Part shown: positions 34,101 to 46,100 of the stretch, piece after piece | Layout: each line of letters opens with the position of its first letter | How positions within the stretch are numbered: the first letter of the stretch is position 1 | Origin: an uncultured Ignavibacteriales bacterium | Lineage (GTDB): Bacteria; Zixibacteria; MSB-5A5; GN15; FEB-12 | NCBI GenBank assembly: GCA_964464605.1 | Contig: CAYXJN010000006.1 | Span: 1 to 64,000 of the forward strand | Direction: 5' to 3' | Length of the DNA stretch: 64,000 nucleotides | Position numbers: made by a program

Positions 34101-37100
34101 TCTTTTGCGCTGATTCTGAATGGCCGGAATTGGAAAAAGAGGTGGCGATGGGAGAAAATCTGAAACAGGAAACGGCACTGTGTAACGCCAGGTTAGTGCA
34201 GGCAAAACAGGGGAAAGGCGGTCTGGGGGTATTTGCGGAGAACGGCTCCCGACTGGTGCAGTGGTCAAGCAGAGAGATTGCAAGCAGCCAGTACCGCACG
34301 AAGCTCTACCGGTTTTTGGCTGATACTATTCCAGTTGTGAGCGCCTGTTTATGGACTTGGGTTCGGTTTGGGGCAGCGCCCGGGCAATTTGAAATCATCG
34401 AGCCGGATGCACGGTCAAAGCATAAGGCAGCGATTGATCGGTTGAATCGACTGAGCGAGCGAATAGGGATTAACCGGTTTGGTGCTCAGGTGGGGATGTC
34501 CACGTTTCTTATTGATCTGTTTACCTTTTTGTATAGGGATGGGATTGTCGGTGGTTTTCTGGTCACGGATAAAAATAGAGCGGGGGTGGAATCATTTCAG
34601 CTAATCGACCCGGCACAACTGGTTTTGGATAGTTCAACCGGGAAGGATTTGCTGCTGTTGGCGACTGATTCGCAAACGGTGCGGCTTGACCGGCCGGACT
34701 TTCGGCATATCTCGTTGGGGGGCGGTATCGCCGAGCCGCTTGGCCGGTCGATTTTTCGTTCGATTCCGTTTGTCGCCTATATCGAACAGCAGTTGGTCGA
34801 CGACATGCGGCGCAGCAGTCATAACTCGGGGTATCATCGGCTGCATGTGCAGATAACTCCGCCTGAACGGTTGGGGGGAGAGAGTGAGAAAGCGTATATT
34901 GAGCGAATCAACCGCTATTTCGATGACACGGTATCGATGATCAAATCCTGCGATGTCGATGAAAATCCAGTGACGTGGAACAACGTGACAATACAGACGA
35001 TTGGACCGAACGCGGCTAAAAGCGTAACGAACAGTTGGTTTTTTAACCATCGAGCAATGATCGAAGAAGTCTGCGCGGGAACGAATCTGGCGCCGTTTTT
35101 ATTGGGCTATTCCTACGGTGCGACAACAACCTGGTCATCGTTTAAGTTTGATATGGTGATGCGTCAGGTACAGTCGGTGCAAACGGAGGTTGCGCAGTTA
35201 TTGGAGTGGATCGGCAATGTCGAACTGGCGCTTGCCGGATTCGATTTGAAATGCCGGTACAAGTTCGATAATACGTTCGCGCATCAGGCGAATGAACAGG
35301 CTTCGGTGCAATCAGTACGGATCGACAGTATTTTGAAACTCTATTCAGCAGGGCTTATCAATATCGATACGGCGCGTATTAAAGCGGCGGAGCTGCTGTA
35401 ATTACGGGCAACAGCGTTGATACTATCGACTGGCAGCGAGGTCTGCTTGAGCCATCCTATTTCGCTGAACAGATTTTAGGGGTTCAGCTACATGAGGGGC
35501 AGAAAAAATGGCTGGCAGATTCAATAACCGGCGAAAATATTCTGGTAACTGGCAACCGGTGGGGAAAGTCGTTTGTCAGCGCGGTGAAGATCCTGCACCA
35601 TCTCTTGTATCGTATTCGTGAGTTAGCGTATGATCATGCCGAGGTGTATCGAATTGTGAATGCATCCATTACGCAGGATCAAGCAGGAATCATTTTCAAT
35701 CAAGTGGTGCGATTGGCGCGACAATCACCAATCTATGCGTCGCTCATTGAAAGTGTCGTCAATTCGCCGTTTCCAAAGCTAACACTCTCCAATTATGCGA
35801 CACTCGAAGCCCGTTCAACCCAGCAGCGGGGGCATTATCTGTTAGGGCATGACTATGATTTCTTTCTTTTCGATGAGGTCGCCTTTGAGCCGGAACCGGA
35901 ATATGTTGTCGAAGAGATAATCCGAATGCGGCTGGCGGACCGAAACGGAAAGCTCGATTTAATTTCGACCCCAAACGGAAAGAATTGGTTTTACCGCCGG
36001 GCGATGAAACTCGCATCCGGTGAAGTCAACGGCTATCTGCAATTCGGCAGCAGTCAGGAGAATCCGTTTATATCGCAGGAGTATTTGAACGAGCGGTTAC
36101 AGTATTTCTCTGACAGGCGGATACAGCAGAATATCAAAGGTCAGTTTGTTGACAGTGGCGGGGAGTTGCTGAAAGGAGAATGGATCGACCGGGCGCTGAC
36201 GAATCAAGCAGACTTGCATGAACATGATGTTCGCTATATCAACGGTTGGGATCTTGCGAGAAAGCAGACAGCGACTGTCGGCATAACTATCGCGGTTGAT
36301 AATGATCTCGCACGAGTTGTTTCGGTCGAGCGGCTTTCCAAATATGACTGGGAGGTCGTGATGACGCGGATTCGGCAGCGGCAAATGCAGTTTCCCGGCA
36401 CGTTGGTACTGGATGCTACGGGGTTGGGGGATGTAATCAGCGAAGCGCTTCGGGATTTACAGCCGGAGACAGTTATTTTTACGCCATCGACAAAGGCGGA
36501 GTTATTGACCAACCTTGAATTGTTCCATGCTTCCGGTCGTATCGGCTACAGCCGAAATGAAATCCCGCTTGAACAGGGGAAGGTATGGGCGCTTGAGGAT
36601 GAGCTTCGTTCAGTCAGGTGGGAGGATAACAATCAATACGACGGAGTTATGGCATTAGCATTGGCCTTGTGGCCTTTGCGAAAACGGGATGCGATTGAAC
36701 TTACGCCGAAAATCGGCCGGGTATAAAATGGCAACGCCACCAGCTTTCGCTGGCGGCGTACATTATCACAAGAGAGGTTGGGAACCGCTTACTCTTTGTT
36801 CGAATTCTTTTTCTTCATCGCATAGGCAGCGACAAGGCCGGAACCTAACAGAATCATGGTAGCCGGTTCAGGGACCTGAGGCGGATTGTCATTGTCTCTG
36901 TCTTTGCCTCCGCGACCATCTCTGCCGTCACGACCGCCGTTGCGATCACGATCTCTATTGTTGTCATGATCACGATCATTTCGATTATCACTATCGTTGT
37001 CTTTACGATCGTTGTCGTTACGATTCTGCTGGTTGTTATTGTTCTTGTTGTTCTTCGGCGTGTTTGTGAAGCCGTACACTTCTGACGTGGTTATGCTCAT

Positions 37101-43100: not shown

Positions 43101-46100
43101 GAACTCAATGCCGGAGATGGGGAAATAAACAGACTCAACGGCGGCGCAATTGCTTCCGGTGAAACGGTATTTCTTGATTTCGTTCCGGTCTATGCAAGTT
43201 TCGGTGAAGAAGTGCTGGAGCTTGCCGCAATTGAAGCGAATGCGCTGGTCGAAGCGGAGATCGATCCGCAACAACAGTATGGTGGTAATCCGGTTTTGCG
43301 GGCGGCGGCGACTTGTTTGGGATTGGCCATTGTCTGCCGAACGTCGGCCTCGCGCGAGCTTTCCCGTTTGCGTGGTGAAGAACGGACCGCATCGGGCTGG
43401 ATAAAGTTAGCGGAATCTTATGCAGAGCGGGGAGAACAGTTGATAAAAGCATTTCGTCCGGCAATGACCGGTCCGGCGGCACCGACACATTAAGAAAGGG
43501 GAGATATGTTTTCAGCGTTTGAGCGAATTGCAGCAAAACGAAGTTGGTTAGTGCCCGGATTTGTGATCTGGGGATTGCCGAGCTGGGAAGAAGCTACATT
43601 TTTGGTGGCGGAACATATCGGAAGTGCTGATTCGATTTATTATGGCTCGGTTGATATCGGAGATGCTTCCCAGTCAGTCACTTTTTCATCACTTCTCGAT
43701 CATCGCGGGAATTATCTTCCTGAAACACTCAGCAAGCCGGTGGTGATGATTCGCCCCCGTTCGGAAACGGCGGCTTTTATAGTGGAGCAGGAATCCAGCA
43801 GGGGTTTCAAAGTTGCACGGGATTCATCGGCCGTAGAACCTGCGGTTGTTGATCTGTTGATTGTTGAGATGGGTGAATAGATGCCGCGAAAAAAAGCAGT
43901 ACCGGCACCATTGCCGAATGATCTGGAATTACTTGACGATTTAATTAGAAAATGCTGTGCGGAGCTTTGTAAAAGTACAAAAATGAATGCGAAACTGGGG
44001 GATTTCATAAAGATGGTCGAGTTACGAAGAGAATTGGCGCCGGCGAAATCGGAACAACAAAAGTTCTGGGAGATGCTGGAGGGAGTGCGGAAGGCTACGC
44101 TGCAAAAAAAGACGCAGGAACCGAAACCGGCTCCTGCGAACAAGCGAAAGACCTCATGAGATGTGACGCGCTATCGGCACGGAGCACCGGCGCCACCAAA
44201 AAGAAAATTCATATAGTAAACTACGTCGGCTATGTTTACCCGGTTATCACAATTTGCATCGGCCCGTCCGGCGCCACCTACCGGTGCCGGACCGGTGCCA
44301 CGGACAAAGGCGATCAAGTAGTTGAGATCGAGCAAATTGGAAGAGGCGTCTCCAGTGTAATCACCGGCAGCAAAACTTTGTGAACAATCATATTGCACTA
44401 ACACGGTCGATGAACCCTGCTGATTGGTTGCATCCGTTCCCAGCGAGCGAAGATACAACCAGGTACCGTTGCTGATACCGCCGGGAGACCAGCTGAATGA
44501 CCAGCCGTTGGCGCCGTTCATATCCGATCCGATAGCGGTGCGAGTTACTGACCAGTCTGTCGGTGAAATGGTGAGCATAGCATCGAGATTTTTCCAGCCG
44601 CCTTCAAACCAAATCTGGCCGGACGCGCCGTTCATGCGAAATTGCACATCCTGAATCGAACCGTAGTTCGGTATTGCGGCTTTGAGATAAAAGCTGCTGT
44701 CCGGCTGCTGCCAGTTGACAAAGCCTTCCATCGTTATCCATGTTCCGGGATTGCCGCCGATAGCGAGCATAACTGCTTGCTGTTGTTCTTCAACCGCAGT
44801 GCGAATATCGAAATAATCCGGTATGCGGGTGTATGTCACTTTCAGATTGACGCCGGTAGCCAAACCATATTCCTGAATTCCTTTGACGACATCTTCATCG
44901 TACGTACCTTTGTAGGTTCTCGTCAAAAAGCGGGTCGCTAATTTTTCGGCGAGTGATTTGGCGTTGATCGATGCACCATTATCTTTCATGAGATTCGTAT
45001 ACCCGCGATCGCTCCAGAGTCTGAGCGCCATCGCTGCGGCCACGGGTGCATTGTAGTAATCACCGAACTCACCGTTCACGGCGAGGTTGTTATCGTTCAG
45101 ATTGCCATTGTTATCACCGACTGCGAACTGGCTTAAGGGAATGATCCCTGCCGAATAGCTGCCAACGGCATTTTTGCTGAACATGGCAATCGATTGTAAG
45201 TTTTCATCCATGGTCGAGAAAGCGACATTGACCGGCGCGCAGATTTTCCCACCTGAGAGCGGAATGGTAATAGTCGGAACGGGTGGTGTCGGTTCAAGGA
45301 AAACAGTGACGCTGTCCACCGAGGATCTTCCCAGCGTATCGACAGCCACAACTTTCAGTTTTTGCATTCCTTCCGGACGGGCATTGAAATTCCAATCAAG
45401 GCTCCAGCCATCGCCGACACCCGTGGAACCGACGCCATTACGGAACGGCGCAGTGCCGCTGTAATCGCGGCCGATTTCGGTATAGGCGCTTCCGTTCCAG
45501 TACTGGAAAGAAACGTAATCGATAATATCTGATCCGGAAGTTTCCGCTGCCCACAAATTTGCTGAACCGAATAGCGTGTCGGCATTAAGCGGATAGCGAA
45601 ATGAAATTACTGGCTCTGGTTGTTCACCGCCACCGCTGCCGCCGGGAATACCGGCTGCATATAGAATTAACTGGCCGGGAAAACCGACAGCGGTATCAAG
45701 CGGAACAAACCCGATAGCGGTATCCCAGATGTTCCAGGCCTGACATTCGACCGGAATCGTGTCGGTAATGACTGCCGCACCGACTGCGGGGTCAAATACA
45801 TCGCCGATATAAAATCCTGCAAAAAAAGGAGAAGTGACCGTAACAAACGTGTCTAACGGGAGCCATATGTTATATAAACCTGCGGCAGGAACGGTAATCG
45901 AATAGGGAGAGGAGATGGCGATGAGATTGCCGGGAGCGGGACAGCTTGGGTCGCTCATATCAGCCAGTTCAATATCAACCGAAGCGGTGAAGGTAACGCC
46001 GGCATCGAACCACATCATCATATTGATTTCCGTCACCTGAAACGGATAGGGGGCATCGCAGGTCAGCGACGGGTCGAGATAGTTTTTGTAGAGTTCATTG

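Follow-up and report, generated by a model that had tools for sequence, protein, structure and literature searches.

A phage-derived head and DNA-packaging locus inherited vertically in Zixibacteria, with a possible role as a gene transfer agent

Introduction

Gene transfer agents (GTAs) are classed as viriforms and include RcGTA of Rhodobacter capsulatus and its relatives, BaGTA, VSH-1, Dd1 and VTA. Head-only gene sets without tail genes are found in the capsid-forming phage satellites (cf-PICI), which encode capsid, protease, portal, large terminase (TerL) and connectors, and encapsulins are, to our knowledge, shells without portal and TerL. Known GTAs, as described in part in PMC10883770, PMC9765227 and PMC9953437, consist of chromosomal phage-derived head and packaging genes that are vertically inherited under purifying selection. 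For the short-tailed, T7-like Legionella phage LME-1, the published description (PMC12407071) gives capsid, decoration protein, adaptor, nozzle and fiber genes and no tail tube.

Here we analyze a block of genes at 34130-44159 (+ strand) of the window, the 64,000-nucleotide stretch at the start of contig CAYXJN010000006.1 from an uncultured member of the Zixibacteria. Its genes specify the portal, TerL, capsid protease and major capsid protein (MCP), together with seven further partners. Like GTAs, it lies in the chromosome, is made up of head and packaging genes of phage origin, lacks integration and replication functions, occurs throughout a large clade, is under purifying selection and may have its parts at more than one locus. 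It differs from GTAs in that it lacks a tail tube, tape measure and other long-tail genes, its capsid matches PF25209/phrog_3922, its portal precedes TerL, its protease carries a fused ligase-like domain and one of its small conserved proteins appears to have a membrane helix; it also spans a whole candidate phylum outside the Proteobacteria and is known here from genes alone. The portal, protease and MCP follow the order of HK97-type head modules, where related phage contigs (L025, L036, L046) have a protease-domain homologue flanked by portal and MCP, and the gp21/assemblin-fold protease with conserved His and Ser and the two-domain TerL are shared as well, but the rest of a phage genome is missing and TerL comes after the portal. 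Like encapsulins, the block would give a shell that belongs to the host and descends from phage capsids, possibly with a ligase-like passenger on an assembly protein, whereas portal and intact TerL are conserved only in the block. We conclude that the block encodes a DNA-packaging capsid that belongs to the host and is passed on vertically. On balance, we favor a phage head-assembly and DNA-packaging module kept as a fixed, vertical host locus (a "viriform") whose most likely use is a GTA-like particle, the GTA role being our best guess from the genes. A literature search found no earlier report of such an element in FCB-type phyla, and as far as that search goes it would be the first.

Results

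Gene content of the block

The features of the block are as follows.

34130..35401, + strand: portal, 423 aa from TTG 34130 (phrog_3753, 4.9e-18)
35401..36726, + strand: TerL, about 441 aa (phrog_2, 5.9e-22; upstream extension conserved)
36789..37220, - strand: interposed PEP-CTERM protein, 143 aa (PF07589, 8.5e-08)
37351..38874, + strand: 507-aa protein with a prohead protease domain (about residues 45-225) and a degenerate ATP-dependent DNA-ligase-like domain (fold, alignment and profile)
38871..39197, + strand: small protein, 108 aa (weak match to phrog_462, 0.0089)
39178..39600, + strand: 140-aa protein, apparently helical by eye (tblastn homologues)
39677..40099, + strand: virion structural protein, 140 aa, adjoining the MCP gene upstream (phrog_4588, 4.1e-06)
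40108..41208, + strand: MCP, about 366 aa (phrog_3922, 6.4e-67; PF25209 Phage_capsid_4, 2.7e-07)
41220..41245, + strand: G+C-rich hairpin of 10 pairs (7 G-C) in the gap between the MCP and propeller genes (terminator-like scan, consensus match)
41270..42682, + strand: beta-propeller (lectin-/sialidase-like) with a C-terminal beta-sandwich, 470 aa (AF2 model)
42684..43493, + strand: 269-aa protein with an Ig-like middle and a C-terminal region (tail-model match, Atlas leads)
43506..43880, + strand: conserved protein, 124 aa (found in 11 of 12 loci)
43881..44159, + strand: 92-aa protein with basic ends (8 of the 12 loci have tblastn homologues)

The four PHROG matches of an earlier note on this DNA, to portal, TerL, virion structural protein and MCP, were recovered. 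The portal, which that note had started at ATG 34148, has a second PHROG match (phrog_30703, 9.3e-11) and 64 invariant columns among seven sequences from six families; it gave no Pfam match and no match in a sequence search of solved structures. The identification of TerL likewise stood, but its coding region reaches further upstream than had been called, to about 35401. The mechanical ORF call begins at GTG 35584, whereas the frame has no stop from 35383 onward and a conserved Walker A motif (TGNRWGKS) precedes the called start; no ATG, GTG or TTG lies upstream of this motif in the open frame. Most of the full-length matches listed begin at query residues 2-11, so the extension is conserved. 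We infer an ATT start codon for TerL at 35401; it overlaps the TAA stop codon of the portal (35399-35401) and has GGAG 8 nt upstream. Walker A, Walker B D158/E159, S189-T190-P191 and nuclease residues D284, D338, D344 and D414 are invariant in seven sequences from six families, and the TerL profile matches solved structures in both the nuclease (5tge, 7.4e-11) and ATPase (4znj, 1.6e-07) domains. As judged from its sequence, TerL is full-length with both domains intact.

A capsid protease, which the earlier note had not recognized, was found by alignment and by a match of the modeled fold. The family of the 507-aa protein, whose true start may be ATG 37441, has invariant H109, S162 (ECSIGF) and C172/C175/C182/H184. 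The AF2 model of the N-terminal domain (pLDDT 85.9) aligned with the T4 gp21 protease 5jbl (Z 9.1, rmsd 3.5, 132 aligned) and with the proteases of the herpesviruses VZV (Z 8.5), HCMV (Z 7.7) and KSHV (5.7), compared with 4.9 or less for the best unrelated rows, and Foldseek matched it to the EBV protease (8.3e-04). On this model, the domain is assigned as a capsid protease of the T4 gp21/assemblin fold. The family profile also matches the DNA ligases 2cfm and 4eq5 at about 5e-05 through the C-terminal part. One member (G221) matches PF01068 at 4.9e-27 and retains KYDG, whereas the copy in the window reads CYDA at this motif.

The MCP reading frame opens at 40078, and the relatives, of 364-368 aa and 57-76% identity across 255 of 285 genomes, start at an invariant M11, corresponding to 40108. 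No capsid family of Pfam or PHROG besides PF25209 and phrog_3922 reached E 0.01. The MCP and the virion structural protein adjoining it are the two best-conserved products of the block; the latter has 58-69% identity, a mean column identity of 73% (11 sequences) and a dN/dS of 0.03-0.14. The phrog_4588 and phrog_3922 pair recurs in outgroup contig L026. By resemblance, this 140-aa protein is likely a head decoration or cement protein.

Between protease and virion structural protein lie two small genes. The 108-aa product has seven homologues in five families, all with a hydrophobic stretch at the N terminus and a conserved tail; by eye, we predict one N-terminal membrane helix and a heptad-like C-terminal tail that is probably helical, and our guess is a role in release or membrane docking. 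Homologues of the 39178..39600 product were found by tblastn in f1 and f4 loci only, and searches of Pfam, PHROG and other family models gave no match; from its position, it could be a scaffolding protein or a small terminase.

Downstream of the MCP, the propeller model (pLDDT 89.9) aligned with PLL-family lectins over 283-286 residues (Z 27-29, rmsd 2.2-2.4), and Foldseek matched it to sialidases at about 1e-11 and, as its best match, to chain 9efk_M of the LME-1 portal-tail complex at 1.6e-11. The TM score of 9efk_M is only 0.31, however, and it falls outside the 50 best structures by Z, which lectins lead. With a dN/dS of 0.07-0.12, the propeller is a candidate surface or receptor-binding protein of a particle. 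The fold behind this surface role is a generic one, a point against our preferred explanation. The 269-aa protein, present in 12 of 12 loci, matches, over residues 80-128, the Ig-like part of models for tail proteins (NF052337 at 8e-07, under the cut-off, and phrog_807 at 6.8e-04), and its Atlas leads, offered as leads only, are Phage_Gp19, a gp6-like connector and an SU10 adaptor (0.85-0.89); its C-terminal region is probably a head-tail connector or adaptor, if these weak leads hold. The SU10 lead is a likeness to short-tailed virions, and a short tail on the particle is a possibility. The 124-aa protein has 13 invariant columns in ten sequences and matched no solved structure; its Atlas neighbors are small viral proteins that score under the recognition mark. 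Searches of Pfam, PHROG and other family models were empty for the 92-aa protein, and its composition leads us to guess at DNA binding or a small terminase. In most relatives three genes, X, Y and Z, follow the block, of which X and Y are fiber-like; all three are missing from the genome of the window, which also counts against our preferred explanation.

Missing phage functions and relation to known viruses

Family searches of the block upheld the earlier claims that integrase, replication and long-tail genes are absent and that no small terminase or tail tube can be recognized, and they also revealed no sheath, tape measure or lysis enzyme. We count these gaps in the assembly, tail and release functions against our preferred explanation. 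Replication and lysogeny genes were absent from Pfam and PHROG searches of the block, and a search of the whole genome for Phage_sheath_1 and tape-measure Pfam families gave zero matches. The previously counted five tyrosine recombinases of the genome were found again, none of them on contig C6. A scan of 20-60 kb found no tRNA, and no att-like repeat was seen flanking the block.

The lack of tail tube, sheath and tape measure in block and genome, together with connector-like proteins and a composition resembling that of the cf-PICI, would suit a head-only module that uses the tails of infecting phages and is now immobile, serving phage interference or a piggy-back transfer of host DNA. We regard this explanation as improbable. 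Unlike a cf-PICI, the block is fixed in its chromosomal place across families, and neither it nor its contig carries an integrase or genes for replication or excision. PADLOC defense models match none of its proteins. The conserved lectin-like propeller and the fiber-like X and Y of relatives suggest attachment parts of its own, and it seems unlikely that a single phage tail type would serve the whole phylum.

Only five phage records match the MCP, at no more than 34.5% identity, and of 80 MCP loci kept from IMG/VR, 79 have 39% identity or less. In the 50%-identity library, a single full-length representative exceeds 50%, at 62%, along with some fragments, and identity drops to 43% for the full-length entry ranked after it. 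Viral capsids come no closer to the MCP than 43% identity in these searches, and the block is isolated from those known. Of the 79 viral contigs holding a related capsid, none has homologues of the genes that follow the MCP in the block. The remaining IMG/VR contig carries a Zixibacteria-type block, which would be expected if a prophage, defective or still active, or some other mobile element had repeatedly spread through the phylum by infection, as would the phage origin of the genes and a GC content slightly above the genome mean (0.507 versus 0.488, the 97th percentile of 10-kb windows, which we count against our preferred explanation). Nevertheless, this contig is merely an 11-kb piece with the host-type gene order, tetranucleotide usage of the block is ordinary for its genome, and integrase, att site, tRNA, replication and lysogeny genes are all absent. 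These observations, and the inheritance of the block described below, make spread by infection very hard to credit.

Distribution, inheritance and selection

The earlier capsid counts were reproduced exactly, with the MCP in 255 of 285 phylum genomes, 189 of 198 high-quality genomes and 118 of 130 genera, as was the count of 145 of 160 for the order (the sum of f1-f4 plus the window's own genome); database matches to the MCP bear mostly Zixibacteria names, with a few other bin names. TerL was matched in 263 of 285 phylum genomes, and portal and propeller profile were each found in 44 of 46 sampled genomes, all at least 98% complete. Gene order, previously said to be conserved in four families, is indeed conserved and extends to 12 loci in nine families. 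The upstream flanks (PDDEXK, o191, TPR and PEP258) and the downstream dockerin gene are common to f1 and f4 and in part to f2.

MCP identity is 69-76% among members of the family, 62-72% across the order and 57-66% outside it, and for both MCP and TerL protein identity declines with taxonomic distance. The block genes tested have a dN/dS of 0.03-0.14 at dS 0.14-0.31; for the MCP it is 0.03-0.06 in 10 pairs drawn from five genomes of one genus, with a single additional pair at 0.12. The block is under strong purifying selection. This selection, the single copy with the same flanks across families and the agreement of identity with taxonomy all oppose repeated infection, as does the division of the module between two distant loci in four genomes (G035, G170, G064 and G070). 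Both halves are kept after the split, and in G170 and G035 they are intact at 0.4 to 1.4 Mb apart, which is not how a decaying prophage behaves.

Losses do occur, also in nearly complete genomes, and weigh against our preferred explanation. Genomes without the capsid had been put down mostly to incomplete bins, but the capsid half is cleanly deleted in G085, and neither MCP nor TerL was found in G121 and G202, even by profile searches. G069 has portal and TerL without MCP and propeller. In G029 (one contig, 99% complete) no TerL was found even by profile and the propeller gene is split. The earlier reading is partly supported: that of a phage-derived head and packaging module, fixed in the host and inherited vertically, stands, while an origin at the root of the phylum, with neither MCP nor TerL in families f11 (0 of 2) and f12 (0 of 1), is at present a hypothesis.

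The retention of capsid, portal and protease in G029 despite its lack of TerL could point to a host capsid with some other use, such as DNA export or storage, extracellular DNA for biofilm, or delivery of a ligase-like cargo. The protease bears a passenger of about 300 aa that could be enclosed in the shell, and the surface-protein neighbors of the block would also fit. However, the presence of TerL in 263 genomes with all catalytic residues invariant indicates that packaging of DNA has been conserved. Just one of eight aligned members bearing the ligase-like part retains the lysine of ligase motif I, and short forms of the protease have no passenger. We therefore consider another use unlikely and retain the GTA-like particle as the preferred reading.

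Proposed mechanism

Since the genes for shell and packing motor are kept and replication genes are absent, it is probable that Zixibacteria assemble DNA-carrying particles of their own, perhaps for gene exchange. The portal would nucleate the MCP shell, which the gp21/herpesvirus-assemblin-fold protease, carrying in most lineages a now inactive ligase-like domain, would mature and the 140-aa protein encoded upstream of the MCP would decorate. TerL, with intact ATPase and nuclease centers, would then pump double-stranded DNA through the portal and cut it, and the Ig-domain protein and small downstream proteins would close the portal. The lectin-like propeller would sit outside and bind a sugar surface, as would two further fiber-like proteins in most relatives. 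With genes for replication, integration and specific recognition all missing from the locus, what is packed is most likely DNA of the host. The data establish the identity of the genes, the integrity of the catalytic residues, and the distribution, synteny and selection of the block; from these we infer that particles would form, pack DNA, leave the cell and perhaps deliver the DNA to another cell.

Surface-protein genes and a hairpin at the locus

The neighbors of the block encode PEP-CTERM and dockerin surface proteins. The PEP-CTERM protein within it, encoded on the opposite strand and probably outside the machine, has a low-complexity middle rich in N/D/R and weak homologues at the same position in L017, L024 and L029; the content of this interval differs from genome to genome. 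The hairpin between the MCP and propeller genes is possibly an attenuator or transcript stabilizer.

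A phage-type head and packaging module between host genes

Twelve co-oriented genes occupy positions 34130-44159 of the window on the + strand, beginning with the portal gene, which is followed by the gene for the large terminase (TerL). An earlier note had proposed a phage head module here on the strength of PHROG matches, and these were reproduced for the portal (phrog_3753, 4.9e-18), TerL (phrog_2, 5.9e-22), a virion structural protein (phrog_4588, 4.1e-06) and the major capsid protein (MCP; phrog_3922, major head, 6.4e-67). In Pfam, PF25209 matches the MCP as well and is the sole capsid family found at E values up to 0.01. 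The block holds the parts of an HK97-type phage head module, namely a portal, a His/Ser capsid maturation protease, an MCP and a two-domain TerL. The features referred to below are:

34130-35401, + strand, portal
35401-36726, + strand, TerL
36789-37220, - strand, small PEP-CTERM protein between TerL and protease, with an Asn/Asp/Arg-rich low-complexity middle
37351-38874, + strand, 507-aa protease
38871-39197, + strand, 108-aa protein
39178-39600, + strand, 140-aa protein
39677-40099, + strand, 140-aa decoration candidate
40108-41208, + strand, MCP
41220-41245, G+C-rich hairpin of 10 pairs, directly 3' of the MCP stop codon and 5' of the propeller gene
41270-42682, + strand, 470-aa propeller protein
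42684-43493, + strand, 269-aa protein
43506-43880, + strand, 124-aa protein
43881-44159, + strand, 92-aa protein

Weak homologues of the PEP-CTERM gene at 36789-37220 are found at the same position in three relatives (loci L017, L024 and L029).

Both flanks of the block look like ordinary host genes. A family scan identified, upstream, genes for a PD-(D/E)XK/Cas4-like nuclease and for proteins of the TPR and PEP-CTERM families and, downstream, a DUF7451/dockerin gene and one for an HD-domain response regulator. At 29504-33898 the nuclease, a 191-aa protein, the TPR protein and the PEP-CTERM protein follow one another, and the same order precedes the portal in families f1 and f4 and partly in f2.

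A capsid protease with a ligase-like passenger

In the conserved N-terminal domain of the 507-aa protein, H109, S162 and a Cys3-His cluster are invariant across the alignment. The AF2 model of this domain (pLDDT 85.9) resembles the T4 gp21 capsid protease (Z 9.1, rmsd 3.5 over 132 residues) and the herpesvirus proteases of VZV (Z 8.5), HCMV (Z 7.7) and KSHV (Z 5.7), with the best unrelated rows at Z 4.9 or below, and a Foldseek search with the same model returned the EBV protease at 8.3e-04. Homologues of the domain lie between portal and MCP in phage contigs and are present in 57 of the 80 loci with a related capsid that were kept from the 154 IMG/VR stretches encoding MCP relatives.

The C-terminal ~300 residues of the protein are related to ATP-dependent DNA ligases (profile matches to 2cfm and 4eq5 at ~5e-05). 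The relationship is also seen in the member from genome G221 (L022:10386-12470), which matches PF01068 (4.9e-27), phrog_114 (8.4e-27) and LigD_N (0.009) and keeps the KYDG motif; judged by its sequence, this protease-ligase fusion looks intact. The ligase motif lysine is lost in the window copy and in six other lineages, where the domain is degenerate, and four lineages have short protease forms without the ligase-like part. The fusion partner is made up of an ATP-dependent DNA-ligase-like domain and a LigD phosphoesterase-like tail.

An intact terminase without a canonical start codon

The mechanically called TerL ORF starts at GTG 35584 and lacks Walker A. The frame is open from 35383, and the stretch between these positions (35383-35584) encodes a conserved N-terminus that includes Walker A (TGNRWGKS); in most full-length rows among the matches listed, TerL matches in other genomes start at residues 2-11 of this extended protein. 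An alignment of seven sequences from six families showed that Walker A, Walker B (D158/E159), S189-T190-P191 and the nuclease residues D284, D338, D344 and D414 are invariant, and profile comparison with solved structures matched the nuclease domain to 5tge (7.4e-11) and the ATPase domain to 4znj (1.6e-07). Since both TerL centres are intact, the module may well still pack DNA.

No ATG, GTG or TTG precedes Walker A in the window, and ATT 35401 overlaps the portal stop codon with a GGAG 8 nt upstream. Locus L030 (CAZDPY010000015.1) is likewise devoid of a canonical TerL start before the conserved motif, and in two further loci (L021 and L034) the sole canonical start falls downstream of the conserved N-terminal motif. 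Because this holds for the window and several relatives, we infer that TerL would be translated by non-canonical initiation or by termination-reinitiation coupled to the portal gene. A programmed -1 frameshift fusing portal and TerL was considered for the 19-nt frame overlap and rejected, as no slippery heptamer follows the in-frame stop at 35380-35382; this favors a non-canonical start or re-initiation.

The propeller protein and candidate delivery parts

The AF2 model of the 470-aa protein comprises a beta-propeller and a beta-sandwich (pLDDT 89.9) and is closest to PLL-type lectins (Z 27-29); a profile search against solved structures returned only weak sialidase pieces. The top Foldseek match is a chain of the LME-1 portal-tail complex, which makes a nozzle-like reading possible (on LME-1, see PMC12407071). 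The Z ranking gives no support to a podovirus-type nozzle, since generic lectins and hydrolases lead it and the LME-1 chain is absent from its top, and we keep the reading as a lead. In four genomes from different families (L013:14340-15765, L014:6437-7841, G208 and G021), two overlapping frames stand in place of the single propeller reading frame, which could be due to frameshift, decay or assembly error.

Among the smaller proteins, the 140-aa decoration candidate upstream of the MCP is encoded by one of the two best-conserved genes of the block (mean column identity 73%), and the alignment of the 108-aa protein, read by eye, suggests a membrane helix at the N-terminus and a tail with a heptad-like pattern. 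The 269-aa protein contains an Ig-like piece and gave connector/adaptor leads, and prediction of its complex with the portal gave no verdict (score 0.00). Profile searches against solved structures returned nothing useful for the 269-aa protein, the decoration candidate, the 124-aa protein, the MCP or the portal. Most relatives also carry two or three additional same-strand genes (X, Y and Z) after the 92-aa gene:

L020:15023-18201, same-strand genes after the 92-aa gene
L021:14959-17773, same-strand genes after the 92-aa gene
L014-L019, L023, L024 and L032, equivalents of these genes

Gene X encodes 430-540 aa, in some cases with a Disaggr_repeat domain, gene Y has a conserved C-terminal CarboxypepD_reg-type domain, and gene Z encodes about 112-122 aa; X and Y carry beta-sandwich or beta-helix-type domains. 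Apart from these CarboxypepD_reg and Disaggr_repeat domains, comparison of the small proteins and of X, Y and Z with PHROGs, Pfam and NCBIfam revealed no informative families. In the window's own genome X, Y and Z are absent at the locus, and only a distant Y-like C-terminal domain is found on another contig (G000 C9:166062-167006).

The family scans recognised neither a small terminase nor a tail tube nor an enzyme for lysis, and no Phage_sheath_1 or tape-measure family occurs in the whole genome. The candidate delivery parts are the lectin-like propeller and the connector-like leads, with no tail tube, sheath or tape measure and with X and Y only in relatives. A satellite-like head module that borrows its tails is a rival reading that we consider unlikely; neither an integrase nor a replication module nor regulatory genes, as expected of a cf-PICI satellite, are present in or beside the block.

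Near phylum-wide retention, rearrangement and loss

MCP matches were obtained in 255 of 285 genomes (189 of the 198 high-quality ones; 118 of 130 genera) and TerL matches in 263 (190 of 198 and 124 of 130, respectively). Of 46 sampled genomes with a completeness of at least 98%, 44 gave a portal match, and in the same sample the propeller profile likewise matched 44. Gene order was compared across twelve 20-kb loci from nine families (f1, f2, f4, f5, f8, f13, f14, f17 and f20). The order protease, small proteins, decoration candidate, MCP, propeller, 269-aa, 124-aa and 92-aa protein was kept in all twelve, the one exception being genome G253, in which the 269-aa and 124-aa genes are swapped; the portal was present in seven and TerL in six of these loci. 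Flanking genes are common to f1 and f4 and partly to f2. Several lineages have host-like genes inserted inside the module (L013, L014 and L019). In two genomes the portal and TerL sit at the ancestral flank and the capsid half lies ~1.4 Mb (G035) or ~0.4 Mb (G170) away, and the two halves are likewise apart in G064 and G070.

The module has also been lost in part or in full. For example, a clean deletion in G085 (99% complete; L032, G085:C4:146500-166400) begins at the protease C-terminus, ends midway through gene Y and removes the whole capsid half, leaving portal, TerL and both flanks in place. G069 (99%) has portal and TerL and neither MCP nor propeller, and in G029 (one contig, 99%) not even a profile search finds TerL, and the propeller gene is split. 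MCP and TerL are both absent from G121 (98%) and from G202 (f11, 95%), and no match to either was found in the three genomes of families f11 and f12. These losses from near-complete genomes, together with the families that gave no match, indicate that the module is dispensable, and they do not establish that it arose at the root of the phylum.

Vertical inheritance and purifying selection

MCP identity to the window copy declines with kinship, from 69-76% within the family to 62-72% in other families of the order and 57-66% in other orders, and TerL identity falls likewise from 54-65% to 47-52%. Among five congeneric genomes (dS 0.14-0.29), dN/dS was 0.03-0.06 for the MCP, with 0.12 in one further pair of other genomes (dS up to 0.31), 0.03-0.14 for the decoration candidate and 0.07-0.12 for the propeller. 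In tetranucleotide usage the block is unremarkable (23% of 10-kb windows deviate more from the genome mean), and its GC content is 0.507 versus 0.488 for the genome (97th percentile of 10-kb windows). The distribution, the common flanks, the identity that tracks kinship and the dN/dS values of 0.03-0.14 point to vertical inheritance under purifying selection.

A prophage transferred repeatedly between lineages would have to be reconciled with these patterns, and we regard it as very improbable. The block has no integrase, att site, replication or lysogeny genes, and the same flanks recur across families. No tRNA was found at 20-60 kb of the window and no att-like repeat around the block; contig C6, to which the window belongs, carries no tyrosine recombinase, all five of the genome being on other contigs. 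The results agree with a head and packaging module of phage origin that has belonged to the host lineage for a very long time.

Comparison with gene transfer agents and encapsulins

Gene transfer agent (GTA) particles are made and released by the host and package roughly random host DNA, in pieces too small for the whole encoding locus, which a tail or another device for attachment and injection brings into recipient cells. As in GTAs, the genes of the block are chromosomal, descend from phage structural and packaging genes and have no genes for replication, integration or lysogeny among them. The sequencing runs listed for this DNA, 20 rows from seven studies, are all of DNA or of unknown type, and none is of RNA. 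RcGTA has an HK97-type capsid of Pfam Phage_capsid PF05065, TerL before portal and siphovirus-like tail genes; the block, in contrast, with its PF25209 capsid, portal before TerL and no tail families, is set apart by these features from the RcGTA-like clade. Encapsulins are shell proteins without portal or terminase whose cargo carries a targeting peptide, whereas portal and TerL of the block are conserved and intact. A capsid serving some other host purpose is, in our judgement, improbable. None of 12 block proteins matches a PADLOC defence model, and only the flanking PD-(D/E)XK nuclease matches models, of Cas4 type.

We lean modestly toward a DNA-packaging particle that belongs to the host and whose use would most likely be GTA-like. 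A GTA-like role as such is the most economical explanation, and we advance it tentatively. A more specific version is plausible, if short of probable: an ancient, independently domesticated Zixibacteria GTA with a DNA-filled capsid lacking a tail tube (short-tailed or fibre-only), in which the protease brings a passenger derived from a LigD-like ligase/phosphoesterase into the shell. The module is a putative new and independently derived member of the GTA/viriform kind. It is distinguished by a small conserved protein that seems to carry a membrane helix, by near phylum-wide retention in an uncultured lineage, and by three traits that would make it an unusual assembly variant, namely the protease-ligase-like fusion, a TerL without canonical start codon and the lack of a tail tube.

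To our knowledge, few independent capsid domestications have been described, almost all in cultured Proteobacteria, spirochaetes or methanogens. Titles and abstracts of the literature on Zixibacteria with GTAs, capsids or prophages, and on GTAs broadly, yielded no description of the module. If the GTA-like reading is true, the module would represent the first viriform of GTA type in an FCB-group candidate phylum and among the oldest known capsid domestications. Its retention by roughly nine of every ten genomes in an uncultured phylum would make host-owned DNA-packaging particles older and more widespread than thought, and would provide a concrete candidate route of gene exchange for a lineage known only from metagenomes.

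Relatives of the module in viral and probably misnamed sequences

Only five of 50,697 phage records match the MCP, all at 34.5% identity or less, and 79 of the 80 kept IMG/VR loci are at most 39% identical to it. For the post-capsid genes, no homologues could be detected in these 79 viral loci holding related capsids. In a library clustered at 50% identity, the Zixibacteria MCP clade is reduced to fragments and a single full-length representative (62%); among full-length sequences the next stands at 43%, followed by others at 39% or below. The 43% cluster (P0124), the closest capsid cluster outside Zixibacteria, consists of short contigs with phage-like context that do not share the block.

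Locus L030, labelled Ignavibacteriaceae, holds the whole Zixibacteria block with its flanks, and individual database proteins with 75% or 72% identity to the MCP carry the bin names Deferrimicrobium, Thermoplasmata or Acidoferrum; L030 and these oddly named proteins are probably mis-binned Zixibacteria contigs. Finally, the remaining kept IMG/VR locus (L035, IMGVR_UViG_3300027896_005586; 60% identity to the MCP) is an 11-kb Zixibacteria-type piece with portal, TerL, protease, small proteins, MCP and propeller. Its cataloguing as "viral" indicates that virus-prediction pipelines can call the host module a virus, a warning that such loci appear there as false 'prophages'.
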